This document shows positions 1,209 through 63,202 of a stretch of DNA of 64,000 bases, piece by piece. How positions within the stretch are numbered: the stretch's first letter is position 1; each line of letters opens with the position of its first letter. The notes beneath the pieces are model-generated. The model was not told the DNA's origin. It was given only the letters and a program-made list of their open reading frames with translations, and searched no databases. Location of the stretch: positions 26,436 to 90,435 of the forward strand of contig DASCPX010000112.1 in the NCBI GenBank assembly GCA_036012755.1. Reading direction: 5' to 3'. The DNA is from Myxococcota bacterium (GTDB lineage: Bacteria > Myxococcota_A > UBA796 > CAJQPC01). A program made the translations under genes and the position numbers.

Positions 1209-1652
1209 GTGCTGGAGCTTCGCAAACCCAAGGTCACCGACGTCGCCGCGATGCAGGCCTTGATGGCGCCTCACGTCCTCGCCGAGTCCCTGCTCCCACG
1301 CACGCGGCTGAGCATCGTGAAGGGGCTCCGCGACTACACCCTGGCCGAGGACGGGGGCGACCTGGTCGGGCTCGCCAGCGTGAGCCTGGTCGATGTCCAC
1401 CTCGCCGAGATCGGGGCGGTCGTGTGCGAGAACCCCGAGCTGTTGGAAGAGCTCCTCGGCGCCGTCCTCGACGAGGCCCGGGCCATGGGCGTCGAGCGGG
1501 TGTTCATCCTCGCGAGGGATCCAGCTCCATACGAGGCGGTGGGCTTCGCACGGACGGACATCGAGACGCTCCCCGAGAAGCGCGACCGCCAGTGTCTGCG
1601 CTGTCTGCGCCAGCCGCGGTGTCGGCAGGTGGCGCTGCTCAGGCAGGTCTAG
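1209..1652 (+). CDS. GNAT N-acetyltransferase (short ArgA-like)
   Basis: LLPR motif, LAEIGAVV, ARAMGVERVFILA, LPEK followed by a Cys cluster; GAGGT upstream of the GTG. Confidence 0.7.
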   Translation: MLELRKPKVTDVAAMQALMAPHVLAESLLPRTRLSIVKGLRDYTLAEDGGDLVGLASVSLVDVHLAEIGAVVCENPELLEELLGAVLDEARAMGVERVFILARDPAPYEAVGFARTDIETLPEKRDRQCLRCLRQPRCRQVALLRQV

Positions 1653-3130
1653 AACAGCGGCTCACCAGGCTCTCTGGGGTCCTTGTGGGCCCCCCGGACC
1701 TCCAGTTCCTCGACCTGTGCCCTTGGAGGAGGCGGCCCGGCCGGCGCTCCGCGCTCGGCGACGTAGTAGCGGCTCGCGAAGTAGCGGACCGTGTCGTCAT
1801 CCCCGGGCACGAGGCGGACGTAGTTCCAGCCGTTCTGGAGGAAGAAGAACTCGTCCCGACCATCCTGGTACATGCGGTACCAGGTGTCGGTTCCGTCCAC
1901 GAAGCGGACGTAGAGGTACGGGTCAGTGGCCCCGAGGCTGAGCTCCACGGTGCCGACACCGTCGCTGTCTTCGTAGGTGCCCTCGTACTTCGTCCAGCCG
2001 TCGGGGTCGGTGCGCACCTCCTCCGGATCGGGCTCGTCGAGCTCCCCGAGGAAGAGCTCGATCGCGCTGTGGGCGAGTCCGTATGGGTTCCACGTGCCGG
2101 AGTTGGCGACGACCACGACGCCGAAGTCCTCTTCGGGGACCATGAGCACGTAGCTGCGGTGGCCGCCGCCGGAGCCACCGTGGCCGACCAGCTGCACGTC
2201 GCCCTCTGACCACGCGAAGTAGCCGTAGCCAGCCGAGCTCAGCGACGCGGTGTAGGTGGGGTGCTGGGCGTGCATGCCCACCCAGACGCCGGCGTCGACG
2301 AGGTCCCCGGCGAGCTGGGCCTCGACGCTGTGGGCGAGGTCCTCGACGCTTCCGTGGAGCCAGCCCGCGGGCCGCAGCCAGGGGCAGTCGTTGAGGTCGG
2401 GGGTGTAGTAGGCGCCGTTGCTGTAGCCGATGCTGTAGGGGTGTTGCGTGACCTCGGCGACGTCGAAGGTCGCGGTCTCCATGCCCGCGGGGTCGATGAC
2501 CCAGGCACGCATGAGCTCGGTGAACTCGGTGCCGCTGGCGGACTCCAGCACCGCGCCTGCCAGTGACCACCCGACGTTGGAGTAGTTGTAGAGCGTGCCA
2601 GGCTCGGCGTGCAGGGCCTCTGCGGAGTCGGTCCAGTGTTCTGAGAGGCTGGGGCTGCAGCTGGTGTCCCACCAGTCGGGCAGCGCCGTGGTGTGGGTCA
2701 TCGCCTGGTGCAGGGTCAGGTCGTCGGGCGACCAGTCCCCGTCGATGGATGCCTCTGGAAGGTAGGTGCTGACCGGCTCCTCGAGGTCCACGATCCCCTC
2801 CTTGGCGAGCTGCATGGCCGCCAGGGCGACGTGCATCTTGGACACCGAGTTCCAGCGCATGACCGTGTCGGTCGTCAGCGGGATGTCCGAGCCGTAGGTC
2901 GCGTCGCCGAGCGCCGCGGCGTAGGCGAGCCTGCCATCGAGCACGACGGCAAAGGCCACCCCCGGGGGCCCGTCGTGGGTGTAGCGGTCGACGGCCTCGT
3001 CGAGCAGCGCCTCCCAGGCGATCTCGTCCTCGTCCACCCCGGTGTCGTGGACGTGATCCGGCTCGTGCTCGTGGACGAGTTGATCCGAGATGTCGTGCTC
3101 GTGGGAACAGGCAAGCGAAAGGGCGATCAT
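1649..3130 (-). CDS. Serine hydrolase (beta-lactamase family) lipoprotein
   Basis: SVSK (SxxK), YSN (YxN) and HGG motifs; N-terminus MIALSLAC followed by a His/Asp-rich tether. Confidence 0.85.
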   Translation of the reverse strand: MIALSLACSHEHDISDQLVHEHEPDHVHDTGVDEDEIAWEALLDEAVDRYTHDGPPGVAFAVVLDGRLAYAAALGDATYGSDIPLTTDTVMRWNSVSKMHVALAAMQLAKEGIVDLEEPVSTYLPEASIDGDWSPDDLTLHQAMTHTTALPDWWDTSCSPSLSEHWTDSAEALHAEPGTLYNYSNVGWSLAGAVLESASGTEFTELMRAWVIDPAGMETATFDVAEVTQHPYSIGYSNGAYYTPDLNDCPWLRPAGWLHGSVEDLAHSVEAQLAGDLVDAGVWVGMHAQHPTYTASLSSAGYGYFAWSEGDVQLVGHGGSGGGHRSYVLMVPEEDFGVVVVANSGTWNPYGLAHSAIELFLGELDEPDPEEVRTDPDGWTKYEGTYEDSDGVGTVELSLGATDPYLYVRFVDGTDTWYRMYQDGRDEFFFLQNGWNYVRLVPGDDDTVRYFASRYYVAERGAPAGPPPPRAQVEELEVRGAHKDPREPGEPLF

Positions 3131-4974: not shown

Positions 4975-4982
4975 GACGGATC

Positions 4983-5249: not shown

Positions 5250-6022
5250 TGGAAACTCAGGACCATGTTTGTGACCAACAGACCCCAGCCGTCCATCAGC
5301 ACGAAGACGAGGAGCTTGAAGGGCAGCGAGATGACCACCGGGGGCAGGACCATCATGCCCATGCCGAGCAAGACGCTCGCGACGACCAGGTCGATGACCA
5401 GGAAGGGGATGTAGACCTTGACCGCGATGATGAAGGCGGTCTCGAGCTCGGAGAGGATGTAGGCGCTGACGACCACCGGCGAGGGGATGTCGTCGAGGGA
5501 CTCCGGACGGTCGATCCGCGCGATGTTCAGCACGGTCACCATCTCTTCCGTCTGCGTGTTCGCCAGCATGAATTCGCGCATGGGCTTCATCGCCGTGTCG
5601 ATGGCGTCGCCGGTCTCCATCTGCCCCGCCATGTAGGGGTCGACCGCCGTCTCGTTGATCTCCTTGACCTGCGGCGCCATCACCAGGAGCGACAGGAACA
5701 GGGCGAGCCCGACGAGCACCTGGTTCGGCGGGGTCTGCTGGAGACCGAGGGCCTGGCGCAGCAGCGAGAAGACGATGATGAAGCGGGTGAAGGGTGTCAT
5801 CACCAAGATGACCGCCGGCAGGAAGGACAGGGCCGTGAGCAGGACGATGATGCGCACCGCCTGGGAGGTGTCCTGACCACCGCTGAGCAGGCCGCTGGCC
5901 ATCTCGACCGACTCCACGACCGCGGCGTCGGGAGCAGCGAGATCCTGGGCGAAGACGATCCCCGGGAACATCATCAGCAGGAGGATGCCGAGGAGCGCGG
6001 TCGCGGCGATGAGGTGCCTCAT
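5246..6022 (-). CDS. fliP: Flagellar export gate protein FliP
   Basis: FTRFIIVFSLLRQALGLQQTPPNQVL and LGMGMMVLPPVVISLPFKLLVFVLMDGW. Confidence 0.97.
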   Translation of the reverse strand: MRHLIAATALLGILLLMMFPGIVFAQDLAAPDAAVVESVEMASGLLSGGQDTSQAVRIIVLLTALSFLPAVILVMTPFTRFIIVFSLLRQALGLQQTPPNQVLVGLALFLSLLVMAPQVKEINETAVDPYMAGQMETGDAIDTAMKPMREFMLANTQTEEMVTVLNIARIDRPESLDDIPSPVVVSAYILSELETAFIIAVKVYIPFLVIDLVVASVLLGMGMMVLPPVVISLPFKLLVFVLMDGWGLLVTNMVLSFQ

Positions 6023-6741
6023 CCGGCCTTGGCCTCCCAGACCTGGCGGCCGCAGAGGACCTCGTCGACGAGGCTCAGGTGGTCCTGCAAGGCGTTGCGC
6101 GGAGCTGGTGTCTTCTCCCAGCGCGAGAACCCGGGCAGCGGGCTCGCGTCGATCGGCGCCAGGTCCGCGTCCGTGAAGCGGCCCACGAGCGCCCGCTTGG
6201 GAGCGCTCGGCACCTCTGGGAGTGTCTCGACCACTGGAGGCAGGACTGCCTCCTGCTCGAGGCAGGTCTCGGTGACCTCTGTGATCTCGGCGAAGCCCGG
6301 GATGTCACCGCCGAGGTCGGCCACCAGCGTCGGTGAGCCCTGCGCGGAGACGCCGACGAGCAAGCGGCGTGAGCCACCATCGCCGGTCTGGCACTCCAGG
6401 AGCACGAGCCCGGCCTGGTGGCCGACGCCGTGACGGGCGATGACCTCCAGCTGCGCGCCCTCCTTGGCCTTCTTCGTCAGCTTGGCGGTGAGCTTCTTCC
6501 GCGCCGCGAAGGCGACGCCGAGGAGCAGGAATCCGCCGACCCAGGCCCAACTGGTGTCGATGCCGGAGGCGGAGGAGGTCGCGCTGGGGGTCTCATCGAG
6601 GAACGAGTCCAACAGAGCCTGCTCCGCGGCCGCGTCCTCGGCCACGAGCGCCGGGTTGATGACGACGGGCTCCTCGACGACGGACTCGCCGTAGGGCTCC
6701 GGGTCCTGGGCGAGCGCCAGGGTGGTGAGCAGGGTCAGCAT
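6019..6741 (-). CDS. fliO: FliO-like protein
   Basis: Position between fliN and fliP; one TM helix followed by LEVIARHGVG...LVLLEC...RLLVGVS beta-domain; short N-terminal signal. Confidence 0.7.
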   Translation of the reverse strand: MLTLLTTLALAQDPEPYGESVVEEPVVINPALVAEDAAAEQALLDSFLDETPSATSSASGIDTSWAWVGGFLLLGVAFAARKKLTAKLTKKAKEGAQLEVIARHGVGHQAGLVLLECQTGDGGSRRLLVGVSAQGSPTLVADLGGDIPGFAEITEVTETCLEQEAVLPPVVETLPEVPSAPKRALVGRFTDADLAPIDASPLPGFSRWEKTPAPRNALQDHLSLVDEVLCGRQVWEAKAG

Positions 6742-11561: not shown

Positions 11562-12302
11562 TCACTTCACGAGGGTCTTCACCAGCTCGTTGGCGGCCTT
11601 GTAGTCGTAGACGTAGATCGAAAGGTCGTTGTCGTCGCCCTGGTAGACGCTGGCGTAGCCACCGTCCAGCTCACGGTCTTCGTCTGCCGTGCTGCTGCCG
11701 GGGACGTACTCCCAGTCGATGGACACATAGGACCTGGCCGCCTTCTCACCTTCGACGTTGTTGTAGGTGTAGCCGTCGCTGGTCGACATCGACTTCTCGA
11801 TGATGCTGTAGCCGCCCTTCTCGAGGTGACCGACGACCGTGTCGGCCTTTACCTCTGTGATCTTGGCGCCCTTGGGCAGGACAGCGCCCAGGATCTTCTC
11901 GGCCTCGTCGCCGTTGTAGACGGTGACGTCGAGGACCGACTTCCCGTCGATGGCGACGCCCTGGGCGTCCTCGGCCATCCACAGGGCGTCCTTTCTGGTG
12001 TCGTAGCGGTCGATGTCGATCTCCGCCCACTGGTTGCCCTTCTTGGCGCTGCACTCGTCGTCGCGAATGCCCTCGTCGGTGTAGCTGTAGCACTCGGTCA
12101 CGGTCCAGCCGTTGGCCACCAGCGCCCCTTGCAGCTCGGAGGTACTCCAGTCGCCGAAGGAGCCGCCCGGGGCCGCAGGGGCGGTCGCCGTCGAGGGGGT
12201 GGCCCTTGGTGCGGTGTTGTCTGCTGGGGTCGTCCCGCCGCCGCAGGCCAGCGCCAATGCGGCCAGGCTGGCGATCGTGATCGCGCGTGTGGTCCTGCTC
12301 AT
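11562..12302 (-). CDS. Hypothetical lipoprotein
   Basis: Canonical signal MSRTTRAITIASLAALALAC, Pro/Thr/Ala tether, two loosely similar domains. Confidence 0.75.
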   Translation of the reverse strand: MSRTTRAITIASLAALALACGGGTTPADNTAPRATPSTATAPAAPGGSFGDWSTSELQGALVANGWTVTECYSYTDEGIRDDECSAKKGNQWAEIDIDRYDTRKDALWMAEDAQGVAIDGKSVLDVTVYNGDEAEKILGAVLPKGAKITEVKADTVVGHLEKGGYSIIEKSMSTSDGYTYNNVEGEKAARSYVSIDWEYVPGSSTADEDRELDGGYASVYQGDDNDLSIYVYDYKAANELVKTLVK

Positions 12303-12354: not shown

Positions 12355-13728
12355 TTACAGGCCGAGGTGGCGCCGGCATGCACCGACCAGGCTGGAGATC
12401 TCGTCCTGCTCCTCGGAGAGCCAGGTCTCGGAGGTCACCCACTCGCAGACGGCGCGCTTCTCCTCTGGGTCTGGCTCGTCCTCCATCAGGTTGGCGAGCT
12501 CCCCAGGATCATCGCCGAGGTCGAAGAGGCCTTCGCTGGGCCCAGGCCAGTATGTGCCCGGCACGTCCTGGAAGGGCTTGCACTCCGTGTACTGTCGCTC
12601 GGGGAAGAGGAAGTACTTGCGGTCGCCCCGAACGACGCCGGCGGTCTCCGGTCCGCGCTCGAAGAAGACATCGACGGCGTCTGTGCCCTCGCCGCTCATC
12701 AAGGGGATCAGGCTGCGCCCATCGATGCGGTTGGGCCACTCCATGTCGAGCAGCTCCAGCATCGTCGGCAGGATGTCGATCGAGCTGACGTGGGTGTCGA
12801 CCAGCGAAGGCTCGAAGCCGGGGGCGCGGATCGAGAAGGTCGTGTTCAGCACGGCGTCGTAGGTGCTGCAGCCGTGGAGGTAGTAGTCGTGGTGCTCGCC
12901 GAGCTCCTCGCCGTGGTCCGTGCCGGTGACCACGATGTCCCAGCGGTCCTGGTCCTCGAGCAGAGTTCGGATCTGGGCGAAGAGCTCGTCGTCGGAGCGG
13001 ACCTGGCTTGCGTAGACCGCCTCGAACCACTCCTGGAAGCCCTCCGGGATCGGCTCGCCGAGGGTGTGGGCGGAGACGTCCTCTGAGTTGATGGTGCTCC
13101 GCGGCTCCCAGTCGCCGTCGTAGAAGTCGTCGATCCAGGGGTCGCGCGGGCTGTAGGCGGCGTGGGGGTCCCGGAAGTGGATCCAGAAGAAGGCGTCGCG
13201 CTCTGGCGCCAGGCGCTCGAGGTCCTCTGCGAAGGCGTCCACCAGGGTGGAGTCCCGGAAGTCGTCCGAGCCTGCCTCGGCCCACTCGTCGGGGTCCGTG
13301 CAGACCGTCTCGGTCCAGTCGTCGTCGAGGAGGTGACACTTGTTCGCGCTGTAGCCGAAGGTGGCCCAGCCCTCTGCCTTCAGCAGCTGGTGGATCATCG
13401 GCGGCATGTCGGCTGGGATGTCGTGGCTCTGGACGCTGTGGGTGCGAGGGTAGGTCCCGGTCGCCAGCGACGGCAGGCTGACCACAGTCACGCCGCGGGG
13501 CACCACCGTGTTCTCGAAGACAACCGCCTCGCTGAAGAGCTGATCGTGGGCCGGGGAGGAGTCGAAGGCGCCGCCGCCCCCGATGTAGTCCTCGTTCAGC
13601 GTGTCCATCGTGAACCAGAGGATGGTGCGCCCGGGGCCGGCGGGCAGCTCCAGCTCCGGGACGCGCAGATTGGCTTCTGCGGGTTGGCCGGTGTCGTCTC
13701 CCGCTGTGCAGGCCAACAGGAGGATCAT
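12355..13728 (-). CDS. Sulfatase-fold (alkaline phosphatase superfamily) lipoprotein, paralog 3
   Basis: ATGA overlap with the upstream stop; MILLLAC; FTMDTLN, WIHFRDPH, GTDHGEELGEH, DILPTMLELL. Confidence 0.88.
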   Translation of the reverse strand: MILLLACTAGDDTGQPAEANLRVPELELPAGPGRTILWFTMDTLNEDYIGGGGAFDSSPAHDQLFSEAVVFENTVVPRGVTVVSLPSLATGTYPRTHSVQSHDIPADMPPMIHQLLKAEGWATFGYSANKCHLLDDDWTETVCTDPDEWAEAGSDDFRDSTLVDAFAEDLERLAPERDAFFWIHFRDPHAAYSPRDPWIDDFYDGDWEPRSTINSEDVSAHTLGEPIPEGFQEWFEAVYASQVRSDDELFAQIRTLLEDQDRWDIVVTGTDHGEELGEHHDYYLHGCSTYDAVLNTTFSIRAPGFEPSLVDTHVSSIDILPTMLELLDMEWPNRIDGRSLIPLMSGEGTDAVDVFFERGPETAGVVRGDRKYFLFPERQYTECKPFQDVPGTYWPGPSEGLFDLGDDPGELANLMEDEPDPEEKRAVCEWVTSETWLSEEQDEISSLVGACRRHLGL

Positions 13729-15095
13729 TCGTCGAGGTGGTCCGTGCAGGCCTGGATGAGCGCCAGCGCCTTGCTGTATTCCTTGCCCCAGGCGTAGTCG
13801 ACCACCCACTGGCAGAGGATGGTCTTCTCGGCGGAGTGCGGCTCGACCTTGTTGAGGTTGTCGTTCTCGTCCGGGTCGGCGTCCAGATCGTAGAGGCCCT
13901 CGGTCGGCCCGGGCCAGGGGTGGTCGTCGTCGAAGGGGCTGCAGCGGGGCAGATCGTCGCCGGCGTGGAGGAAGTACTTGCGGCCATCGACGACCGTTCC
14001 GGCGGTGTTCGTTCCGCGCTGGAAGAAGACCGGCACCGACTCCGTGCGCTGGCCCACCGCGACCGGCACCAGGCTGCGTCCTTCGATCTCCTCTGGGATC
14101 CGTATCTCCAGCAGGTCGAGCAAGGTGGGGAGCATGTCGGTCGTGCTGACCCTCTGGTCCACGACCGTGGGCTCGAGGCCGGGCGCCTGGAAGCTCCAGG
14201 TCGTGTTGAGCACGGGCTCGTAGGTGGAACAGCCGTGCTGGTAGTAGTCGTGGTGTGCGCCGAGCTCCTCTCCGTGGTCCGTGCCGGTGAACACGATGTC
14301 CCACCGTCCGGCTTCCTCGAGGGCTTCGCGCACCTGGCCGAGCATCTCGTCGCCCGAGGCCACCTGGCTCGCATAGACGGCCTCGAGCCAGTTCTCGAAG
14401 TCGTCGCCCGGCTCGAGCTCGCCGAGCGTGATGGCTCGGAGCTCCTCGCCCTCGATCGGGGAGCGGTCCTCGCGCGGGCCGTCGTAGAACTCGTCGATCC
14501 AGGGAACGCGCGCGCTGTAGTCGACGTGGGGGTCCCGGAGGTGCAGCCAGAAGAAGGCGTCGCGATCTGGCGGGAGGTGGTCGAGATCGTCGACGAAGGC
14601 GTCGACCACGACCTGGTCCCGCTCCCGGTCGGTGAGGCCCTCTGCGACCGGAGTCCCGTCCACACAGACGGCCTTGTTCCAGCCGCGGTTCTGCATCACG
14701 CAGATGTTCGAGGAGTAGCCGAAGGTGGACCACCCTTCGTCCTTCAGCAGCTCCTGCACCATCGGCGGCATGTCGTCCGGAGCGGGGATGTCCTTGTCGT
14801 ACACGCCGTGGGTGCGCGGGTAGGTCCCGGTCGCGATCGAGGGCAGGCTGATCACCGTGACGCCGCGGGTGACCAGGGTGTTCTGCAGGAGCACGCCCTC
14901 TTCGAAGAACTCGTTGTGGTTTGGGCTCGAGGGGTGGATCGAGTCTGGGCCGAGGTGATCCTGGTTGAGCGTGTCGATGGTGAACCACACCACCGTCCTC
15001 CCGGGAGGGGCAGGGGCGTCCAGGACCGGGATGTGCAGTCGGGCGGGCCCGCCGGTGTCCGCGCCCGTGTTGCATGCGATCAAGAGGAGGGTCAT
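13725..15095 (-). CDS. Sulfatase-fold lipoprotein, paralog 2
   Basis: ATGA overlap; MTLLLIAC; FTIDTLN, WLHLRDPH, GTDHGEELG, DMLPTLLDLL. Confidence 0.88.
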   Translation of the reverse strand: MTLLLIACNTGADTGGPARLHIPVLDAPAPPGRTVVWFTIDTLNQDHLGPDSIHPSSPNHNEFFEEGVLLQNTLVTRGVTVISLPSIATGTYPRTHGVYDKDIPAPDDMPPMVQELLKDEGWSTFGYSSNICVMQNRGWNKAVCVDGTPVAEGLTDRERDQVVVDAFVDDLDHLPPDRDAFFWLHLRDPHVDYSARVPWIDEFYDGPREDRSPIEGEELRAITLGELEPGDDFENWLEAVYASQVASGDEMLGQVREALEEAGRWDIVFTGTDHGEELGAHHDYYQHGCSTYEPVLNTTWSFQAPGLEPTVVDQRVSTTDMLPTLLDLLEIRIPEEIEGRSLVPVAVGQRTESVPVFFQRGTNTAGTVVDGRKYFLHAGDDLPRCSPFDDDHPWPGPTEGLYDLDADPDENDNLNKVEPHSAEKTILCQWVVDYAWGKEYSKALALIQACTDHLDE

Positions 15096-16450
15096 TCGGC
15101 CAGGTGCTCCGTGCAAGCGTCGATGAGCTCCTGAGCCTGAGCGACGTCGTCGCCCCAATCGTAATCCACGACCCACCCGCAGAGGGTCGTCTTCTCGATG
15201 GGGTTGGGTTCTGTCTCGGCGAGGTTGTCGGCTTCGTCGGGATCCTGGACCAGGTCGAAGAGGCCTTCTGTGGGCCCAGGCCACACCTCGTCGCCGCCGA
15301 ATGGGCGACAGAAGGGCTGCTCTCCCTTGGACAGGAAGTACTTGCGGTCCCCTTCGACGACACCGGCGGTACCGGAGCCCTTCTGGAAGAAGACCGGCAC
15401 GATGGAGTCGTCTTCGCCACCCGCGGCCGCGACCAGGCTGCGACCCTCGACGCTCTCTGGGATCGGGATGTCCAGGATCTCCAGCAGGCTCGGCAACATG
15501 TCGGTCGTGCTCACGCTGTCCTCTATGCGGCTGGGCTCGAGCTCCGGCGCGCGCATGCTCCAGGTCGTGTTGATCACGGGCTCGTAGGTCGAGCAGCCAT
15601 GGAGGAAGTAGTCGTGATGGGCTCCGAGCTCCTCGCCGTGATCCGTGCCCGTGAAGATGACATCGAGCCGGTCGGCTCCTTCCAGGGCATCGCGTACCTG
15701 GCCGAGCATCGCGTCGCTGGAGGCCACCTGGCTTGCGTAGACCGCGCTCAACCAGTCCTCGAAGCCGTCAGGAGGCTCCGTCTCTCCGAGCGTGATGCCG
15801 TCGAGGTCGTCCATGATGATGGTCGTGCGGCCGTCCCGCGGGGCGTCGTAGAAGTCGCTGATCCAGGGTTCGCGCGGGCTGTAGGGAGCGTGCGGATCTC
15901 GCAGGTGGATCCAGAAGAACGCGTCCTGGTGGGCGGGCAGTCTCGCCAGATCCCGCAGGAAGGCATCGACCATCAGCTGGTCGCGCGCCTGGTCGGTGGA
16001 GGCTGTCGCGCTGTCCGCGGAGCAGTGCGACTCGGTCCAGCCGCGGCTGTGCATGACGCAGATGTTGGCGGAGTAGACGTAGGTCTCGAAGCCCTCGTCC
16101 TGGAGCAGCTCCTGCACCATCGCAGGCATCGCGCCAGGCGGGGGGATCTGCTTCTCCGTCACGCCGTGGGTGCGGGGGTAGGTGCCCGTGGCGATCGACG
16201 GCAAGCTGATCACCGTCACACCGCGGGTGACGACGGTGTGGGGCATCACCACCCCCTGCTCGAACAGCGCCTCGTGGTGCGGGCTCGAGGGGTGGACGGA
16301 GTCCGGACCGAGGTGGTCCTGGTTGAGCGTGTCGATGGTGAACCAGACGACCGTCCTCGGGCCACTGGTCCTGGCCTCCTGCACGGGTATGCGCAGCGCT
16401 GGAGCCGAGGGGTCCTCGGGACCGGCGGCGCAGGCGAGGAGCCAGATCAT
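15092..16450 (-). CDS. Sulfatase-fold lipoprotein, paralog 1
   Basis: ATGA overlap; MIWLLAC; same motif set as paralogs 2 and 3. Confidence 0.88.
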   Translation of the reverse strand: MIWLLACAAGPEDPSAPALRIPVQEARTSGPRTVVWFTIDTLNQDHLGPDSVHPSSPHHEALFEQGVVMPHTVVTRGVTVISLPSIATGTYPRTHGVTEKQIPPPGAMPAMVQELLQDEGFETYVYSANICVMHSRGWTESHCSADSATASTDQARDQLMVDAFLRDLARLPAHQDAFFWIHLRDPHAPYSPREPWISDFYDAPRDGRTTIIMDDLDGITLGETEPPDGFEDWLSAVYASQVASSDAMLGQVRDALEGADRLDVIFTGTDHGEELGAHHDYFLHGCSTYEPVINTTWSMRAPELEPSRIEDSVSTTDMLPSLLEILDIPIPESVEGRSLVAAAGGEDDSIVPVFFQKGSGTAGVVEGDRKYFLSKGEQPFCRPFGGDEVWPGPTEGLFDLVQDPDEADNLAETEPNPIEKTTLCGWVVDYDWGDDVAQAQELIDACTEHLAE

Positions 16451-17778
16451 TCCAGGTACCCCAGGGCCCGGAGTCCCTCCAGGGTGGCCTCGTCGACTTC
16501 GATCTCGGTCTCGGCAGGGCTACGGAGGACCACGGTGGCCCGGTAGTCGTCCAGCGCCTCGCGGAGTGTCTGCAGCGGGGTGCCGTCTTCTTCGACGAGA
16601 CTGGTCTGCTCGTCGTCGCCCCGGTAGAGCGCCTCGCCGCCTCGCCACTGCATGAGCTTCCAGTCGTCCTGGACCACCATCCACGTGCCGGTCTCGATGG
16701 TCTTCAGCCCTCCGCGGTAGCCGATGACGGCGCGCTCCGGCAGCGGCTCGGTCAGATCGAGGCCGTCGACGGCCTGGGGCAGCTTTCGAACGCCGGCGAG
16801 GCTGGCGAGGGTCGGTGCGAGGTCCACCTGGCTCACGTTGTCACGAACGACGCGGCCCTGCGGAACTCCCGGGCCGGCGACGAGGAAGACGACGTCGTTG
16901 ACCTCCTGCCAGGTGCGCGTGTTCAGCCCGTGTCCCCACTTTTCGTGCTCGCCGAAGGCGTCGCCGTGGTCGGAGATGACGACGATGATGGCGTCCTCCA
17001 TCTCGAGGTCGGCGACGATGCGCTCTACCCAGTGGTCCATCCAGGCGATCTCGGAGGCGTAGGCGCTCTTCATCTCGTCGACGGGGTCGGCCTCGTCGAC
17101 GAAGCCCGGCGCCCGGCGGTGGTAGGGCTGGTGCGCGTCCATGAGGTGGACCCAGACGAAGTCGGGGCGGGGGTCCGTCTCCAGCGCGTCGGAGAACTCC
17201 AGGAGCTTGGCGTGGACCTTCTCCGCGTCGGCGGGGGCTTGTCCTCGGGCCTCGAGGCACCACTCCTGGGGAGCGTCGGGGTTCGCCGTCTTGGGTCCGG
17301 GGTGGACCTCCATGTCGTCGACCCCGAGCTTGTCGTAGAGCTCGAAGCCGCGGGCGTAGCCCTGGCGACTCAGCATCAGGTGGTTCGTCGTGACCCCGGC
17401 GGTCTGGTAGCCGTTGCGGCGGAAGTGCTGCGCGAGGGTGAGGGTGGACTTGTCGAGGACGGGGAGGGGGAGGAGCTCTCGCCCGGACTCCGCGGACTCG
17501 GCGCGCTTGGGGATGGGGCCCTCCAGCACGCCGTGGCGGTCGGCATACTGGCCGGTCATCAGGCTCATGATGCTCGGCGGCGTCCAGGAGCTGACGGAGT
17601 GCGCGTTTTCGTAGACGACGCCTCGCTCCGCGAGGGCTCGCATCGTGGGGGTCCCGTCACCGGAGAGATCGAGGTGGTCGGCACGCATCGTGTCCAGCAC
17701 GAAGACGATCACGTCCGGGTGGTTGTCCTGCGCGGTCGCAGGAGCGCATGCGCCGAGACACTGGAGCAGCAGGAACAT
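16447..17778 (-). CDS. Sulfatase-family lipoprotein
   Basis: LDTMRADH, SSWTPPSIMSLMTG, HLMDAHQPY, SDHGD, C-terminal LRALGY. Confidence 0.88.
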   Translation of the reverse strand: MFLLLQCLGACAPATAQDNHPDVIVFVLDTMRADHLDLSGDGTPTMRALAERGVVYENAHSVSSWTPPSIMSLMTGQYADRHGVLEGPIPKRAESAESGRELLPLPVLDKSTLTLAQHFRRNGYQTAGVTTNHLMLSRQGYARGFELYDKLGVDDMEVHPGPKTANPDAPQEWCLEARGQAPADAEKVHAKLLEFSDALETDPRPDFVWVHLMDAHQPYHRRAPGFVDEADPVDEMKSAYASEIAWMDHWVERIVADLEMEDAIIVVISDHGDAFGEHEKWGHGLNTRTWQEVNDVVFLVAGPGVPQGRVVRDNVSQVDLAPTLASLAGVRKLPQAVDGLDLTEPLPERAVIGYRGGLKTIETGTWMVVQDDWKLMQWRGGEALYRGDDEQTSLVEEDGTPLQTLREALDDYRATVVLRSPAETEIEVDEATLEGLRALGYLE

Positions 17779-17812: not shown

Positions 17813-18568
17813 GTGCTGCTTCTGCTGCTGGCTTGTGTGACGAACCTGCCCGACACCGGGACGGCCCCGGACTCGGAGGCCGAGGCTGATGCGGACGCGG
17901 ACGCCGACAGCGACACCGACGCAGACGCAGACGGTGACACCGACGCGGACTCCGACGCTGACGGCGACGCCGACACCGACGCTGACGGGGACGCGGACAA
18001 CTGCGTGATGCTCGCCGAGGATCTGCCTGGGAACAACGATGTCGTCGAGCGGGACCTGGGGTCGGTGGTCAGCGCCGGCGGGGCTCAGCTGTGGCTGAAG
18101 AACTTCGACCCCCCGAACCAGTCGAGTTCGGACAAGCACCACGTCTTCGCCGGTCGGACCGTAGAGGACGCCGGAGACGGTGGCGGGCCGGGTCAGACCG
18201 ACTTCTGGCGCTTCCGGACCGGCCAGAACTACGGCGGCGGCGGTGACGGCACGATGAAGATCCTGACCTCGAAGGAGCCCAACGGGCAGGAAGAGGATCG
18301 CCTGCTCGACGACTACGCCTGGGACACCTCCGCGACCTACACCCTGCGCGCGGAGTGGGGCGCCGATGGCAACACCCGCTACGCGCTGGATGGCTCCGAG
18401 ATCTGGTCCTTCGCCTGGGACGTGCCTCTGGACATCCGGTACATCTACGTCGGCAACGACGGCTACCACGGCTACGCGACGACCCCCGACGCCCAGTACG
18501 TGCGGCTGGTGGCATGGCGCGGAGACAAGCCCGAGCACCTGGACTCTGCGGTCGCGGACTGCCCCTAA
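17813..18568 (+). CDS. Hypothetical lipoprotein with Asp-rich (DADAD/DTD) linker and beta-rich domain
   Basis: GTG start giving MLLLLLAC; alternating-Asp tract; strong GC3 codon bias. Confidence 0.75.
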   Translation: MLLLLLACVTNLPDTGTAPDSEAEADADADADSDTDADADGDTDADSDADGDADTDADGDADNCVMLAEDLPGNNDVVERDLGSVVSAGGAQLWLKNFDPPNQSSSDKHHVFAGRTVEDAGDGGGPGQTDFWRFRTGQNYGGGGDGTMKILTSKEPNGQEEDRLLDDYAWDTSATYTLRAEWGADGNTRYALDGSEIWSFAWDVPLDIRYIYVGNDGYHGYATTPDAQYVRLVAWRGDKPEHLDSAVADCP

Positions 18569-18578: not shown

Positions 18579-19001
18579 ATGCTCAGCGTCATGGTTCTGG
18601 CGGTGGCTTGTACGAAGTCGGTGGACACTCCTACGGACTCTGCAGCCGTCGGCGACTCTGGCGATCGTTCAGACAGCGGGCCCAACACCGACAGTGGCGA
18701 AGAGCCGGCGAGGGTGTCGGTGACCGTGTCGCTGGATGTCGATGTCGGTTGGGTCATCGTCGTAGGGGAAGACGAGGAGTGGGACGACATCACCCCGAGC
18801 GAGTTTCCTGCGGGCACTGTGCTTGTCGATGAGGTGGACCCGGGTACGTGGTACCTGCTCGCCGCATCCCCAGAGCGGGACCGCTGTGAGTCCACGGCTC
18901 CGATGACGTTCGCTGCAGGCGATCGTTGGCTTTGGACCGTTTCGGAGTTCTCGAGCGACTACGACTACGAAGCGGACTTCTTCGCGTGCGGAGCGCGCTG
19001 A
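18579..19001 (+). CDS. Hypothetical lipoprotein
   Basis: GAGGA upstream; MLSVMVLAVAC; acidic tether; somewhat lower GC3 than neighbours. Confidence 0.65.
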   Translation: MLSVMVLAVACTKSVDTPTDSAAVGDSGDRSDSGPNTDSGEEPARVSVTVSLDVDVGWVIVVGEDEEWDDITPSEFPAGTVLVDEVDPGTWYLLAASPERDRCESTAPMTFAAGDRWLWTVSEFSSDYDYEADFFACGAR

Positions 19002-22747: not shown

Positions 22748-23245
22748 CTACCTCTGGAGCGTCGGGAGGGTGAGGCGCTCCGCCAGCGATGCCGCCTTGT
22801 CCGGCTCCATGCTGGCCAGCACCTTGCCTGCCTTCGAGGTGTTCATGCCGTCGAGCACCTCTACGGCGAGGTCCTCTTCCAGCTCCGCGACGAAGGTGCC
22901 CGCGTCGCTGGCGCGCATGGACTCCACCATCTTGATCAGCGCGCGGACGCGAGCCTTGCGGACCTCGTCACCGTCGTCGAGCAGGGTCTCGATCTCCGAG
23001 CGGAGAGTCTCGAGCTCGACCAGGCGCTCCTCGATGCGGGTCTCGACCTCGCGCAGCTCGGCCTCGCGGGCCTCTGCGCTGGCCTCGCGTCGGTCAAGGG
23101 CACGCTCGCGAGTCTCCAGCCGGTCGACGAGCTCCTGCATGCCGCGGGTGTCCCCCTCGGGCCAGGAGGCAGCCTCGGCGAGCGGGACCCCCTCGTCCTG
23201 GCCGATCGCGGAGCCGCAGCCGCACAAGAGGGCCAAGAGCAGCAT
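22748..23245 (-). CDS. MotE/YlxF-like flagellar lipoprotein
   Basis: Coiled coil then LIKMVESM..SDA...KAGKVLASMEPDKAASL; between fliJ and fliK; MLLLALLCGC. Confidence 0.8.
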   Translation of the reverse strand: MLLLALLCGCGSAIGQDEGVPLAEAASWPEGDTRGMQELVDRLETRERALDRREASAEAREAELREVETRIEERLVELETLRSEIETLLDDGDEVRKARVRALIKMVESMRASDAGTFVAELEEDLAVEVLDGMNTSKAGKVLASMEPDKAASLAERLTLPTLQR

Positions 23246-46551: not shown

Positions 46552-47730
46552 ATGTTCTCGTTGTTGCTGGCCTGCGCCCAGCCGTTGGCGCCGGGTGAGT
46601 GGGGGACCATGCGGTGGTTCGCCGAGCTCAAGGGCGAGCAGCCGATGCGGCTCTTGCCTCCCGCTACGGACCGCGACGGCAACGCCTACGTGCTCTACGG
46701 CGACCGGGAAAACCCGGAGAGCTACGTCTTCACCGGTGGCGCCCTCGGCGGCTGGTCTGGCGGCTGTGACGCCCACCGGGGCAACCGCGGCCTCCACGGC
46801 TTCGTCGGTCGCAGCGACTCGCGCATGTGGTTCTGGAGCGGCGACGCCCTGAGCGTCGTGAGCGGCGAGACCGGAGCCTGTCGCGAGGTCCTCTCGGCGG
46901 ATCCGGTCACCGGGACCGGGCTCTACTTCCTGGGTGTGATCCCGCGGGTGAGCGAGACGCCATCTCATCGCTACCTGCCGGCGCTGGTCCAGGGGGCCAG
47001 CGACACGACGCCCTTCTACGTGACGATGGACCTCGACGAGGACCGTTACTTCGACGCCATCCGCTTCGAGCCCGAAGGAGTAGAGGCCGTCGCCGTCGCT
47101 GGTACGGGCGCCGATCCGGTGGCCGACGAAGGTGTCTTCGTCGTCACCTACACCCTGGGCGAGGGCAGCTTCACCCGCGCCATCTTCGTGGCCGGAGACG
47201 GGCGCAAGCGCCTGCGCACCCTGGACGTGCCAGAGGTGCTCGAAGAGGACGCGATCCTCGGCTTCGTGCAGTTCGCGGCGGACGGCGTCGGGGCAGCCCT
47301 GCTCGAGGACGGGCGGCTCTTGCGCATCGCCCGCGGCCAGGTGTTCATCGACGAGATCGTCGGCATCGAGCCCCATGGCGTGCAGACCTGGAATGGCTCG
47401 CTGTACCTCACCGGCCTGGTCGACGGCATGCCCTCCATCCAGAAGATCGAGGCCACCGGGGCCTCTGGCTCGAAGAACTGGACGGCCGCGCGGCAGGCCC
47501 AGGCGAACCTCGGCGAGGTCTCGGTGCTCGACGAGCGCAGCGACCCGGCCCTCACGACGGACTGGGCGGAGTCGAGCAGCGCTATAAGCGCGGGGGCGCT
47601 GTTGTCGCCCTGGCCCCTCGACGTCTACACGACCGACTCAACCAGCTGGCTGGTGGCGGGACCGGCCTACGAGGCTGGCGCGGAGCCCTTCACGGCGGTG
47701 GCCTTCGCGCCGGTGGGGGTGAGCTTCTGA
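46552..47730 (+). CDS. Hypothetical lipoprotein (beta-propeller-like)
   Basis: MFSLLLAC; co-oriented with and tightly spaced to its neighbours. Confidence 0.75.
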   Translation: MFSLLLACAQPLAPGEWGTMRWFAELKGEQPMRLLPPATDRDGNAYVLYGDRENPESYVFTGGALGGWSGGCDAHRGNRGLHGFVGRSDSRMWFWSGDALSVVSGETGACREVLSADPVTGTGLYFLGVIPRVSETPSHRYLPALVQGASDTTPFYVTMDLDEDRYFDAIRFEPEGVEAVAVAGTGADPVADEGVFVVTYTLGEGSFTRAIFVAGDGRKRLRTLDVPEVLEEDAILGFVQFAADGVGAALLEDGRLLRIARGQVFIDEIVGIEPHGVQTWNGSLYLTGLVDGMPSIQKIEATGASGSKNWTAARQAQANLGEVSVLDERSDPALTTDWAESSSAISAGALLSPWPLDVYTTDSTSWLVAGPAYEAGAEPFTAVAFAPVGVSF

Positions 47731-48852: not shown

Positions 48853-49635
48853 TCAGCGCTTCCTCAAGTGGAACGCCCAGCTGTTGCCGTCTTCGTTGGT
48901 GGCGATGCCGAACATCTGGTCCGGCCAGGTGGCCACCGCGACGTGCTCCACCGCCATGTCGTTGACCCAGAAGTGGACGACGCCGTCGCTGGCCTTCCAG
49001 GTGTTGAACTCGGTCGGCAGGGTGACCTCGAGGGTGCCGTCGTGGTTGAAGGTCAGTTCGAGGTCGACGGGCTGGTCGGGGTCGAGGTCCTCGAGCCGCC
49101 AGCTCGTGCCGGCGAGGTCCGCGCGGAGGTAGCCGTCCTCTGGGAGCTCGTCTGGAGCCTGGATCTTGGTGGCCCCGGGAGCCTGGCGGATCAGCGCGAA
49201 GCCCCAGGTGTCCTCTGCGTTGCTGGCAGTGCCGCGGACCAGGTTCAGGTCCGTGAAGACGCCTCGGTACTCGACGAAGCCGTCGTTCATGGAGAGCGTG
49301 ACGACCGCGCCGTCCTGGCCCCAACCGTCGTTGTCCTTGGTCGTGTCCGCGGGGTTGTGCAGCATCGCCACGCCGTCTTCGAGGAACTCGACCTCGTAGG
49401 CGTACTGACCGTCGGGCGCGCTGTAGTACAGCGTCCACGGGCTCGTGCTGACGTCCAGCGCCGGGGGAGCGCTGGTGGGAGTGTCACCGGACTCGGGGGT
49501 GCTGAACTCGGAGGTCGGGATCTCCTCTGTCCTCGGCAGGTCCCGCAGGGCGAGGGGCGGAATGGGCTCGTCGGGCACCTCGCGGCGGTGGGCCGCGAAG
49601 TCCGGGTACTTCACACATGCGAGGAGGAACAACAC
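48853..49635 (-). CDS. Hypothetical lipoprotein with two tandem beta-domains
   Basis: MLFLLAC; internal duplication (F..DG...W...G.V...ND...G.A.N....W.F.L.R). Confidence 0.75.
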   Translation of the reverse strand: MLFLLACVKYPDFAAHRREVPDEPIPPLALRDLPRTEEIPTSEFSTPESGDTPTSAPPALDVSTSPWTLYYSAPDGQYAYEVEFLEDGVAMLHNPADTTKDNDGWGQDGAVVTLSMNDGFVEYRGVFTDLNLVRGTASNAEDTWGFALIRQAPGATKIQAPDELPEDGYLRADLAGTSWRLEDLDPDQPVDLELTFNHDGTLEVTLPTEFNTWKASDGVVHFWVNDMAVEHVAVATWPDQMFGIATNEDGNSWAFHLRKR

Positions 49636-59908: not shown

Positions 59909-59914
59909 GGGCCC

Positions 59915-59920: not shown

Positions 59921-60040
59921 TCCGGCGCTCTCCACGGCGCGCTTCTCGGAGGGGTCGCTGGCCGGGTTTGCGAGCCCAAGGGTCAGCATCCACGCGGTCA
60001 TCGGATACCTTGCCCCCTTCGTCTCATCCTCGAGGTCCTC

Positions 60041-62554
60041 ATGTTGCTTCTCCTGGCCTGCGCCAAGCCGGAACCTGCCACCCCGGTGGACCTGACCCGA
60101 CGGCTCGGTCCCGGCGAGGCGCGCGCCGGCTTCGTCACCGATGAGGCGGCGCTCTTCGGAGGGATCTCCGCAGAGGGCCGCTCGGGCGACGTCAAGATCT
60201 ACAACGATCGGGTCCAGTTCGTCATCCAGGGCCTCCGTCCGGGCAACTACTACATGGAACACCCGGGCATGGTCGTCGACGCCGACATCGTGCGCCCGGA
60301 GGGACAGCTCGGGCGGGACATGGTCGATGACTGGGGCACCATGGCGGGTGTCGCCCGCATGCAGGAGGGTACGGCCGTCTCCCTCATCGACGACGGGCGG
60401 ATCTCCGGCAGCGCGATCGTGCGGATCGACGGCGAGGAGATGGGGCTGAAGCTGGCCGAGGGGGCGATGGAGGCTCCGGGCTTCATCCCCGAGCTCGGGC
60501 TGGCCATGCGGACCGACTACGTGCTGCAGCCGGAGTCCTGGTTCCTCGAGGTCTACACGACGATCACCGCGACCGAGGGCGAGGCCACCTTCGCCGCCGG
60601 GGACCTGCTGATGGGCTCACTGGACGCGGCCCAGCTGTTCTTGCCTGGGCATGGCCTCGGCGAGGTGGACCAGGGCGAGTACGCCTACCAGGCCTTCCTC
60701 GGCCGCCGGGGCGAGGGCGCCTTCGGGCTCTTCGCCAGTCCAGGCGGCTACGTGAAGCTGGACGCCACCGCGCAGATCATCTCCTCGCTGGCCGACATGG
60801 CGGTCGGCGTCGACGACCTCGTCACGCTGGAGGAGGGCGAGTCCCACACCTACACGCGGCTCTACGGTGTCGGTCCGGATCTCGCGACCCTGGCCTCGTC
60901 CTGGCTGGAGCTCTCGGGCGAGGCCACCCAGACCGTCGAGGGAGTGGTCGAGGCACCGGACGGACCGGTCGGCGGGGCCTGGGTGGGTGTGCTCGTCGAC
61001 GACGAGCCCTGGACCATCGGGGTCACGGATGCAGACGGCGCCTATGGCTTCGAGGTCCCGGAGGGCGACGTCGAGCTGGTGATCTCCGGCCGCGGTCGGG
61101 GGCTCAGCGCCGACCACGCCACGGGCTGGGCGAGCTACTCCGCCTACGCCGCCGAGGGTGTGCGCGAAGCCCACCTCGCGGCCCTGCAGCAGGGGGCCGT
61201 GGAGGTCCCAGAGGCCGTGGGTCGTGGGATCGCTGTGGACGGCATGCTCGGGGAGCCGGCGGTGCTCTCGGTCAGCGTCACCGATGGGCTCCCCTTCGAG
61301 GTGCAGGTCTTCGACAGCGAAGGCGAGGACACCGTCGACACCCGGGTGGTGCCAGACCGCTTCAAGGGCTCGGCAGCCTGGGGCTTCGCCAGGGGCGGGG
61401 ACATCCAGCTGGCCATCGAGCCCGGGACCTACGACGTGCTGGTCCACCGGGGCGTGCGCTACGAGGTCCACGAGGAGCAGGTGACCCTGGAGGCAGGCGA
61501 CACCATCGGTGTGTCAGCCGTGCTCGACGAGGCCTACTCCCTGCCCGACTGGACCGCGACCGATCCCCACGCCCACGCCTCTCCGAGCCAGGACGGCGGC
61601 TGCCCGATGGAGGACCGCATCGCCGTTGCCGCGGCCCGCGGGGTGCAGGTCCACTTCGGCACGGACCACGACCACGTCTCGGACTACCGCCCCCTGGTCG
61701 AGGCCATGGGGCTCTCCGACGTGATGCAGTCCGTCGTCTCCGACGAGATGAGCCCGGTGGTGCGCGGGCACGTGAACGTCTACCCGATCGAGCCCGACTA
61801 CGAGCTCTCCAACGGCGGGGCCTGGGCCTGGTACGAGGAGCTCGTCCAGACCACGGAGGAGCAGTTCGAGATCCTCCGGGCTCGGCACCCCGAGTCGCTG
61901 TTCCAGCTCAACCACCCGGTGGACAGCGGCGTGGCAGAGGCCGCGAACTGGAGCCCCGGGCGCATCGGCAATCCCGACAAGTGGGTCGAGGACTTCGACG
62001 CGATGGAGGTGCTCAACAGCGGCTCCTACGACAGCTACCTGCCGCTGTACATCGACCTGACGAATCGTGGCTACCGCCCGACCCCGACCGGGACCTCCGA
62101 CACCCACGGCCACGTCAGCGGCAGCCCCGGCTTCAGCATGACCTTCGCGAACGTCGCGCTCTCGGACTGGGACAACGACGCCCTGGTCGATGCCTGGTAC
62201 CGCCGCGCGGTGGTCGTCTCGCGGGGGCCCTTCATCTCCACCTCGCTGGACCCGGGAGCCGAGGTCGTCGGGCCCCAGACCCTCGACGTCGAGGCCCTCT
62301 CACCCAGCTGGATCGTGGTCGATCGGCTGATCCTGCTGGAGAACGGCGAGGCCATCGAGACCGTCGAGGACACCGTCGCCAGCTTCACGCTCGATCCTGA
62401 CGAGGACGCGGTCTACATCGTGCTCGCCGAGGGCGACACCTCGATGGCGCCGGTGGAGGGCGACACCCCCTGGGCGATGACCTCGGCCATCTTCCTGGAC
62501 GTCGACGGCGACGGCTTCGAGCCGCCCCTGCCTGGCTTCGAGTACGGTCCCTGA
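60041..62554 (+). CDS. PHP-like (CehA/McbA-family) metallohydrolase lipoprotein
   Basis: GAGGT upstream; MLLLLAC; DPHAHA..S.D, TDHD, GHVN, NHP, SDTH metal-binding motifs. Confidence 0.8.
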   Translation: MLLLLACAKPEPATPVDLTRRLGPGEARAGFVTDEAALFGGISAEGRSGDVKIYNDRVQFVIQGLRPGNYYMEHPGMVVDADIVRPEGQLGRDMVDDWGTMAGVARMQEGTAVSLIDDGRISGSAIVRIDGEEMGLKLAEGAMEAPGFIPELGLAMRTDYVLQPESWFLEVYTTITATEGEATFAAGDLLMGSLDAAQLFLPGHGLGEVDQGEYAYQAFLGRRGEGAFGLFASPGGYVKLDATAQIISSLADMAVGVDDLVTLEEGESHTYTRLYGVGPDLATLASSWLELSGEATQTVEGVVEAPDGPVGGAWVGVLVDDEPWTIGVTDADGAYGFEVPEGDVELVISGRGRGLSADHATGWASYSAYAAEGVREAHLAALQQGAVEVPEAVGRGIAVDGMLGEPAVLSVSVTDGLPFEVQVFDSEGEDTVDTRVVPDRFKGSAAWGFARGGDIQLAIEPGTYDVLVHRGVRYEVHEEQVTLEAGDTIGVSAVLDEAYSLPDWTATDPHAHASPSQDGGCPMEDRIAVAAARGVQVHFGTDHDHVSDYRPLVEAMGLSDVMQSVVSDEMSPVVRGHVNVYPIEPDYELSNGGAWAWYEELVQTTEEQFEILRARHPESLFQLNHPVDSGVAEAANWSPGRIGNPDKWVEDFDAMEVLNSGSYDSYLPLYIDLTNRGYRPTPTGTSDTHGHVSGSPGFSMTFANVALSDWDNDALVDAWYRRAVVVSRGPFISTSLDPGAEVVGPQTLDVEALSPSWIVVDRLILLENGEAIETVEDTVASFTLDPDEDAVYIVLAEGDTSMAPVEGDTPWAMTSAIFLDVDGDGFEPPLPGFEYGP

Positions 62555-63202
62555 GTGCTCTGGCTCCTCGCATGTCCACCCCCGGCGACGCCTGGCGACA
62601 CCGGCGCTGTCGTCGGCGAGACCGGCGGCGAGGACAGCGTCGTGGACACCTCCTGGCCCGATGACTCGGACTCGGCGGAGGAGACCGGCGAGCCCGTCAT
62701 CGACCTCGACGAGGACGGCTTCCCTCGCGAAGAGGACTGCGACGACGGTGACGCCTCGATCAACCCGGACGCCGAAGAGGTCTTCGACGGCTTCGACAAC
62801 GACTGCGACGGGGTGATCGACGCCAGCGGCAGCTATTCGGGGAGCTTCGGGATCGCCGCTCGGGGTTGGTTCGAGGGGGATCCCCACGACCTCGCCTACG
62901 ACTGCCCGATGGAGATGGAGCGCGAGCTGATCTCGGCGGACTGGGTCGTGACCTGCACGATCCCCTCGGGCGACGAGTGGGGGAGGCTGCTCCTGGGCGA
63001 GACCCTCACCCTCATCCCAGAGGACCCCTACCTCTGGGAGCTCGACAGGTGGGACGGGGACGTCATCGTCACCTCGTCGGACGGATGGGACACCTACGGG
63101 ACTGGCAGCCTGAGCTGGAACACCATGGAGAAGGCGACGCTGGTGGTCGGGCTCGACACGACCTGGCTCGACTTCACGGGCAGCGGCAAGCTGAAGCGCT
63201 GA
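62555..63202 (+). CDS. Lipoprotein with one MopE-like repeat
   Basis: GTG directly after the upstream TGA; MLWLLAC; DCDD..INPDAEE..DG.DNDCDG. Confidence 0.8.
   Translation: MLWLLACPPPATPGDTGAVVGETGGEDSVVDTSWPDDSDSAEETGEPVIDLDEDGFPREEDCDDGDASINPDAEEVFDGFDNDCDGVIDASGSYSGSFGIAARGWFEGDPHDLAYDCPMEMERELISADWVVTCTIPSGDEWGRLLLGETLTLIPEDPYLWELDRWDGDVIVTSSDGWDTYGTGSLSWNTMEKATLVVGLDTTWLDFTGSGKLKR

Follow-up and report, generated by a model that had tools for sequence, protein, structure and literature searches.

Very short, uncharged lipoprotein leaders in the genome of a Myxococcota bacterium and their distribution in its order

The locus considered here is a 64,000-nucleotide stretch of DNA (hereafter the window) from contig DASCPX010000112.1, positions 26,436 to 90,435 of the forward strand, in the draft genome GCA_036012755.1 of a Myxococcota bacterium. 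It holds 18 genes whose products begin with Met, a few hydrophobic residues and a Cys, in other words with what resemble lipoprotein signal peptides of unusual brevity. A bacterial signal peptide is generally held to need at least a basic amino-terminal region (n-region) and a membrane-spanning hydrophobic region (h-region), and PROSITE-type rules for lipoproteins look for a Cys at residues 15–35 and K or R among the first seven residues. In canonical lipoprotein signals the hydrophobic stretch ends with the lipobox [LVI][ASTVI][GAS]C, as given in an excerpt of PMC12462473. All 18 leaders of the window match this lipobox or nearly match it, their first Cys is residue 7–11, and K, R, D and E are absent ahead of the Cys (0/18). 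An initial annotation, made from the sequence alone, had listed these N-termini, and each of the 18 was found in its place and on its strand, with ATG as the start codon of 14 genes and GTG as that of four (17813, 28945, 49635 and 62555; genes are named by the coordinate of their start codon).

The Pfam families of the encoded proteins (sulfatases, beta-lactamase family, MopE, CotH/NPCBM) are of types typical of exported proteins. The reverse strand (−) carries a beta-lactamase-family lipoprotein (1649..3130, MIALSLAC; PF00144, E 1.8e-51); the four sulfatase lipoproteins of one operon, at 16447..17778 (MFLLLQCLGAC; PF00884, E 7.9e-41), 15092..16450 (MIWLLAC; Pfam match), 13725..15095 (MTLLLIAC; Pfam match) and, as final gene, 12355..13728 (MILLLAC; PF00884); an SGL/gluconolactonase-like lipoprotein (19204..20226, MLIALLCC; PF08450); small lipoproteins at 22748..23245 (MLLLALLCGC, within a flagellar cluster) and 31218..31703 (MIAMLSLLAC); and a 260-aa lipoprotein at 48853..49635 ((M)LFLLAC, the brackets standing for a GTG start). 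On the forward strand (+) lie an acidic D/A/T-repeat lipoprotein (17813..18568, (M)LLLLLAC); a small predicted lipoprotein without Pfam match, the least certain gene of the set (18579..19001, MLSVMVLAVAC); a MopE-type Cys-rich repeat lipoprotein (26125..28020, MLLVILSLGC; PF11617, E 3.4e-46); a CotH + NPCBM lipoprotein (28945..30585, (M)TLLLAAC; Pfam match); a small lipoprotein without Pfam match (33085..33558, MTLLLIAC); an FG-GAP-like lipoprotein (44421..46544, MLLALTLVLSC; Pfam match); a 392-aa lipoprotein of no Pfam family (46552..47730, MFSLLLAC); an 837-aa lipoprotein (60041..62554, MLLLLAC); and a MopE-motif lipoprotein (62555..63202, (M)LWLLAC; PF11617).

The starts of these genes are defined by several kinds of sequence feature. 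An in-frame stop lies 0–9 codons upstream in 6/18 genes: 62555 (TGA, 0 codons), 17778 (TAG, 3), 17813 (TAA, 7), 26125 (TGA, 8), 44421 (TAA, 8) and 46552 (TGA, 9). Stop/start overlaps of the type ATGA occur at 13728, 15095 and 16450, and one of the type TGATG at 23245; at 62555 the TGA of the preceding gene immediately abuts the GTG. The short start is that of the longest open reading frame (ORF) at 3130, 16450 and 20226. A Shine–Dalgarno (SD)-like site is found at 8/18 starts, among them GGAG at 3130, GGAGG at 26125 and 44421, AGGAGG at −12 to −7 of 31703, and further sites at 18579, 33085 and 60041, while TANNNT near −12, the leaderless type, precedes 3/18 (28945, TACGAT; 49635, TAAGCT; 62555, TACGGT). 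Inspection of stops, overlaps and motifs thus bears out the earlier statement that many starts are pinned by overlaps, SD sites or leaderless −10 boxes.

Coding potential was assessed with a codon-usage score trained on the genome containing the window (G000) and with the GC content at third codon positions (GC3), both over the 50 in-frame codons before each start. Upstream of 17/18 starts the score is −0.20 to −1.05 per codon and GC3 is 0.32–0.82; downstream of all 18 the score is +0.08 to +0.59 and GC3 is 0.74–0.97, the lowest downstream score being that of 18579 (0.08). The sole exception to the negative upstream score is 62555, where the preceding gene, in the same frame, occupies the upstream sequence. 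The long open frame before 60041 (59015–60040) is non-coding (score −0.08), and two opposite-strand genes there score 0.39 and 0.40. Alternative in-frame starts exist upstream of 23245 (7 codons), 17813 (6 codons) and 31703 (15 codons). The GTG at 17795 would give 17813 the sequence MWDDGRVLLLLLAC, and the ATG before 23245 would prepend MAPEGGV; only the alternative of 31703 would add basic residues, and it is the own start of 31703 that has AGGAGG. In addition, within the first 60 codons of genes the strict motif occurs at 494 of 18,722 start-type codons, and at greater depth at 105 of 77,121, an approximately 20-fold excess, and from the internal rate well below one chance case is expected in a window of ~50 genes. 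The 18 short leaders of the window are thereby confirmed as true N-termini.

Some neighbouring features concern the same genes. The leader MTLLLIAC is common to the unrelated genes 15095 (−) and 33085 (+), with 22/24 nucleotides identical, which might reflect either a small duplication or accidental convergence towards the consensus. The genes 60041..62554 and 62555..63202 share a frame with one TGA between them (62552–62557), and the second has its own lipoprotein-type start. The flagellar cluster, at 3153–12383 and 20321–23661, encodes FlhB, FliR, FliQ, FliP, FliN, FliM, FliL, a MotB-like protein, FlgE, FlgD and ‘Flagellar_put’, and is interrupted at 12355–20226 by the four-gene sulfatase operon and other lipoprotein genes. 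An Rfam scan of the window gave 0 matches.

The position of the first Cys was also tabulated throughout G000, a 6.73-Mb draft of 68.4% GC in 250 contigs, 96% complete, for which 4777 ORFs no shorter than 80 aa, together covering 84% of the genome, were picked by codon-usage score as the gene set. Short leaders proved widespread: 238/4777 genes have at most 12 residues before the lipobox Cys. Leader length was counted up to this Cys, beginning with the earliest ATG, GTG or TTG that follows the preceding in-frame stop; as an upper bound, the measure is independent of which start is chosen. Among 405 lipobox genes the maximum length is 6 in 41 cases, 7 in 85 (the mode), 8 in 46 and 9 in 33, and a second group, low and broad, lies at 15–23 residues. 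Many seemingly long leaders carry an ATG 6–8 residues before the Cys with non-hydrophobic sequence ahead of it, and only 32 lipoproteins of G000 are clearly canonical. A looser rule yields 442 short-lipobox starts together with 160 short uncharged starts of the signal peptidase (SPase) I type. Among the 2056 genes whose first start is at most 10 codons from a stop, the first hydrophobic window starts at residue 2 in 158 and at each of residues 3–8 in 31–49.

The consensus of the 238 short leaders is M-x-L-L-L-L-A-C, with position −3 occupied by L in 196, V in 16, I in 14 and F in 12 and position −1 by A in 175, G in 36 and S in 27, although the L at −3 and the A/G/S at −1 are partly fixed by the search expression. 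Charged residues are rare (K/R in 7/238, D/E in 4/238), and the first codons are ATG in 136, GTG in 93 and TTG in 9. The h-region averages 6.6 residues with a Kyte–Doolittle value of 2.86 per residue and 49% Leu, versus 13.7 residues, 2.04 and 29% Leu in the 32 canonical leaders; together with the absence of K/R from the 18 window leaders, these values uphold the initial description of leaders that miss the n-region and whose length does not suffice to cross a membrane. In 168/238 leaders the second residue is a bulky one (L, I, F, W or M). Methionine aminopeptidase leaves the initiator Met in place before a bulky second residue, so the Met should be retained in these proteins.

Short and canonical signals coexist in G000. 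Three canonical lipoproteins lie in the window itself, as had been described, and serve as comparison genes: 11562..12302 (−, MSRTTRAITIASLAALALAC), 30631..30993 (+, MTTSNLRSLSLLLLVGLSLSC) and the VWA lipoprotein 33559..35451 (−, MNRALLLSSVLTLTALAAC). The mature parts encoded at 17813–18568 and at 30631–30993, one behind a short and one behind a canonical leader, both open with D-A/D-T/D-S repeats of considerable length (..ADADADADSDTDADADGD..). Over all lipoproteins of G000, residues 1–20 of the mature part have a net charge averaging −3.0 after short leaders and −2.8 after canonical ones, with a proteome that is only mildly acidic; an acidic mature N-terminus is equal in both kinds of lipoprotein and was discarded as a mark of the short class. 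Pro numbers 2.1–2.3 per 20 mature residues in the lipoproteins of G000 versus 1.1 for the proteome.

Initiation signals were surveyed at all 238 short starts. At most 10 open codons lie upstream of 106. An SD-like site at a spacing of 4–8 is present at 81/238, compared with 374/1915 other pinned genes and 137/1950 internal controls, and a TANNNT positioned exactly at −12 is found in 15.1% of the 238, in 5.2% of 4498 other genes and in 0.0% of 4539 controls; overall, ~5–6% of genes have it. By simple rules, 49 short starts have a −10-like box and 99 more an SD-like site. A stop codon falls exactly four codons upstream of 44/238 short starts; in the whole set it does so in 517/4777 genes versus ~180 at neighbouring offsets, and it is mostly TAG within TAGACT-like hexamers. 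From known promoter geometry, TANNNT at −12 would be the −10 box of a leaderless mRNA beginning at the start codon, in which case an upstream extension cannot be translated. The −12 peak also appears in samples of the relatives G007, G012, G006, G014 and the distant G259, with 0/93 genes in G029; since G006, G014 and G259 have it, it is not specific to the short-leader trait, and leaderless promoters were rejected as the cause of the trait despite their ~3-fold enrichment at short starts. Stop-codon reassignment was likewise set aside, as stop usage in 8959 long ORFs is normal (TGA 6194, TAG 2505, TAA 260).

Loss of the n-region is also seen in exported proteins of the SPase I type, whose cleavage sites were assigned by eye. 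The best Omp85/BamA match starts MIHLLLAFWIALA.., just ahead of the first POTRA-like sequence and with no n-region; FlgI starts MLLALLIASTDAQA/EVR and one LolA starts MLLSVLALGLA/AE, each with a stop three codons upstream and no n-region. In this putative SPase I class, which includes ~160 other leaders, an h-region and, on this reading by eye, an A-x-A-like c-region are seen, for example in FlgI and LolA, and the n-region is absent. If the organism builds an outer membrane and flagella, the signals of BamA, FlgI and LolA must work. Two similar genes lie in the window: a flagellar-cluster protein without Pfam match, not listed by the initial annotation (6019..6741, −), with the short SPase I-type signal MLTLLTTLALA/QD, and a LolA_like periplasmic protein (40515..41252, −; PF17131, E 9.8e-59) with an uncharged 17-residue signal, MSLFFALTATLTPGVHA/EE. 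The latter is followed within 40515–43656 (−) by two MacB/FtsX-type permeases, the whole resembling a Lol-like or MacB-like export module. Outside the window, the best BamD/YfiO match (contig C149:39926-40537) and the best FlgH match (contig C47:85224-85751) have short uncharged signals (MFALLLTLSLPAVAAKNQ.. and MMLLLMLGAALAGPPEPP.., respectively), and neither of these G000 matches has a lipobox Cys. BamD and FlgH are lipoproteins in E. coli.

Comparison with orthologues indicates that the leaders are homologous to canonical lipoprotein signals of relatives and that the trait is lineage-specific. Orthologues in sister genera have signals of 12–23 residues, often M-x-R. For 46552, six orthologues have signals of 15–20 residues in which R or K stands close to the N-terminus, e.g. 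MIRSLWALAPVLLLSAC, and the orthologue in G007 starts MLTLLLSC. For the CotH gene 28945, signals at 15 other loci range from 7 to 23 residues, with leaders of 7–9 residues in G021, in G027 and in the three genomes of the genus to which the window belongs, and of 12–23 elsewhere. The orthologue of 1649..3130 in G002 starts MLFLALAC, with a stop seven codons upstream. Maximum signal length is 6–9 in G000 and G007, 7–10 in G012 and 10–13 in G006, where some signals have a single R; G014 is mixed, and G029, G031 and the distant G259 have signals of 12–24 residues, usually M-x-R. These genomes are related and hence not independent, so that the gradient is indicative rather than a statistic. A degenerate DNA pattern for MxLLLAC matches 42 times in G000, 20 and 53 times in the other two genomes of the genus, 29 times in G007 and 5–10 times in eight other genomes of the order. 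Outside the order (257 genomes) it matches 0–2 times in 14 genomes of the same class and 0–3 times in 243 others of the phylum, and the reversed-pattern control gives 0–2 matches per strand. In 301 genomes of the phylum, no case of the extreme form lies outside this order.

The export and lipidation machinery of G000 comprises one SecY, one SecA, an Ffh M domain, the signal recognition particle (SRP) RNA, two deformylases, three S26 signal peptidases, five Lgt, two LspA, one Lnt N domain and two LolA; no second SecA or second SecY was found in this genome. Outside the window, C59:99943-102645 carries a tandem lspA-lspA-lgt-lgt operon, and three more Lgt genes lie elsewhere. Both LspA copies align to the solved LspA 6ryo and keep intact the motifs GNxxDR and FNxAD, which we take to hold the catalytic aspartates. 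An alignment of 30 SecY sequences (the four genomes with the strongest trait versus 26 others) has only two discriminating columns, both mild, at position 4 (K/M versus V/N/Q/L) and position 47 (M versus L), and the lengths of the transmembrane segments are unchanged; a prl-like change of SecY was rejected on these grounds. Lgt is present in an unusual 3–6 copies in all 41 genomes of the order that were searched, and genera g2 and g3 and family f3, with 0–1 pattern matches, likewise have two LspA copies or the tandem operon. Copy number of LspA and Lgt was therefore dismissed as the cause, since multiple copies also occur in genomes of the order without the extreme trait. The SRP M domain was detected in 40/41 genomes, the missing one being 73% complete, and Ffh bit scores follow no consistent trend (89.9 in G000, 106.7 in G007). 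Within what was examined, no feature of the machinery sets the short-signal genera apart. The initial annotation had proposed a modified or unknown export or lipidation route, which gains no support here, SecY being nearly unchanged and canonical Sec, SRP, Lgt, LspA, Lnt and LolA parts being present; of the lineage-specific changes it had suggested looking for, the SecY comparison gave only the two mild columns, and the multiplicity of Lgt and LspA is order-wide and does not track the trait.

The explanation favoured here, with a probability of about 0.7, is that these leaders are minimal Leu-rich Sec-type signals, for both SPase II and SPase I, that form true N-termini and would be handled by the ordinary pathway. 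It builds on the observed starts and motif, the motif's excess across the genome, the longer orthologous signals of relatives, the gradient within the phylogeny and a machinery found to be both present and conserved. The basic n-region and the greater part of the h-region would have disappeared from the leaders, probably as these were shortened step by step in a single order of an uncultured lineage. There would remain formylmethionine (fMet), a core of four to six strongly hydrophobic residues, roughly half being Leu, and the lipobox L-[LA]-[AGS]-C. Such a leader would most likely be taken by the ordinary SecA/SecYEG (or SRP) route, after which Lgt would diacylglycerylate the Cys, LspA would cut off the 6–9-residue leader, Lnt would add the N-acyl group and the Lol system would sort the product. 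The SPase I substrates, with signals of 11–15 residues, would share the loss of the n-region. The shortness is probably offset by the very high hydrophobic density of the leader, and a second probable offset is the strongly acidic early mature region, which would keep the charge difference ‘positive-inside’ and may have permitted the loss of the n-region. Translocation efficiency depends on how long and how hydrophobic the h-region is (Chou and Kendall 1990, as cited in an excerpt of PMC5427057), and the denser, Leu-richer short h-regions fit the trade-off between length and hydrophobicity described for engineered signals in that excerpt.

Several points weigh against this explanation. A 6–7-residue leader cannot span a membrane, so that Lgt and LspA are only assumed to handle it in the ordinary way; export, targeting, orientation, lipidation, cleavage and compensation are all deduced from sequence. 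The acidic mature N-terminus, invoked as compensation, is equally strong after short and canonical leaders and fails to separate them. Neither an SD-like nor a −10-like signal was recognized at 90/238 short starts. Of the Sec and Lol components, the search covered SecY, SecA and LolA, and the comparison between genera covered the SecY sequences, the copy numbers of Lgt and LspA and the presence and bit scores of the SRP M domain. The gene set and motif rules are home-made, which makes the counts approximate, and the DNA samples of relatives span 88–400 kb with only 2–25 lipobox genes each.

The physical shortness of the leaders is one argument for the possible, though rather improbable, alternative that real short leaders need a lineage-specific adaptation or an unknown factor, such as a specialised Lgt or LspA paralogue, a targeting protein or an unusual membrane. 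The five Lgt and two LspA genes of G000, with their operon on C59, would suit such an adaptation, and the confinement of the trait to one order suggests something heritable in the machinery. However, 3–6 Lgt genes occur in all 41 genomes, the tandem operon is found in f3 genomes with 0 pattern matches, SecY differs at just two mild columns in 30 sequences with no second SecA or SecY in G000, both LspA copies retain their catalytic motifs, and canonical and short signals are used within one genome. An undescribed step of this lineage that reads fMet, five greasy residues and a lipobox as a complete export-and-lipidation signal is rated as equally doubtful; were it true, it would constitute a second, non-textbook entry route for lipoproteins beside the canonical one that serves the ~30 normal signals.

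Less probable still is that the hydrophobic N-terminus stays uncleaved as a short membrane tether or that the Cys stays unlipidated, so that these would not be classical lipoproteins. An LspA site on so short a leader may be presented abnormally, and the BamD and FlgH homologues without lipobox Cys suggest a use of lipid anchors unlike that of E. coli; on the other side, the lipobox is very well conserved immediately before the Cys and aligns with the lipobox of the canonical signals of orthologues, Lgt, LspA and Lnt are all encoded, and a stable tether would need more than seven residues. Mis-assigned starts, with translation from unusual upstream codons or another frame yielding ordinary signals, are the least likely of all and largely refuted. 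The upstream frame is open for more than 50 codons in 41/238 cases, and open frames at 68% GC are rich in Arg codons and can resemble n-regions; yet an in-frame stop lies within 10 codons in 106/238, −10 boxes and SD sites are positioned for the short start, ATGA coupling is present, coding potential begins at the short start in 17/18 window genes (62555 being preceded by a gene), the pinned cases have no hydrophobic or basic n-region-like sequence upstream, and stop-codon usage is normal.

Set beside known systems, the short leaders of G000 resemble canonical Sec/SPase II signals of the E. coli Lpp type in that the lipobox is kept, that Lgt, LspA, Lnt and LolA are encoded and that they are orthologous to normal signals of relatives. 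They differ from them in missing the basic n-region (K/R in 7/238), in having the Cys at residue 7–10 instead of ~16–25 and in being unable to span the bilayer, with an h-region averaging 6.6 residues, compared with 13.7 in the canonical signals of the same genome. The laboratories of Kendall and Mizushima reportedly engineered idealised poly-Leu signals as single E. coli constructs in which the charged n-region was kept. With these the leaders share very short Leu-rich cores and the trade-off between length and hydrophobicity, whereas the trait of G000 is natural, extends over ~240–440 lipoproteins and ~160 other exported proteins and involves no n-region. Twin-arginine translocation (Tat) and type IV pilin (class III) signals are similar in being N-terminal and in part short. 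Unlike Tat signals, the short leaders of G000 have no RR, and the 18 of the window no R at all; Tat-like signals of this genome are few and separate, with long n-regions, e.g. MASMKRRDFFKMVGVTGAAGLTAC. Unlike type IV pilin signals, they have no G/F..E prepilin motif in the logo of the 238. No description of natural ultra-short or n-region-less bacterial lipoprotein signals was found in the full-text literature, subscription-only literature being outside the scope of the search.

Most lipoproteins of G000 would escape rules that demand a Cys located after residue 15 or K/R close to the start. This concerns ~240 by the strict and up to ~440 by the loose count among 4777 genes, along with ~160 secreted proteins, and estimates of the secretome and lipoproteome for such metagenome-assembled genomes would consequently be far too low. 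The short leaders would also serve as very compact tags for secretion or lipidation. The natural series from 12–23 down to 6–9 residues, alongside a nearly unchanged SecY, makes the question of the minimal signal directly testable. Should an uncharged leader of 6–7 residues suffice for export by Sec and for processing as a lipoprotein, the minimum generally held for a signal peptide would not be universal.

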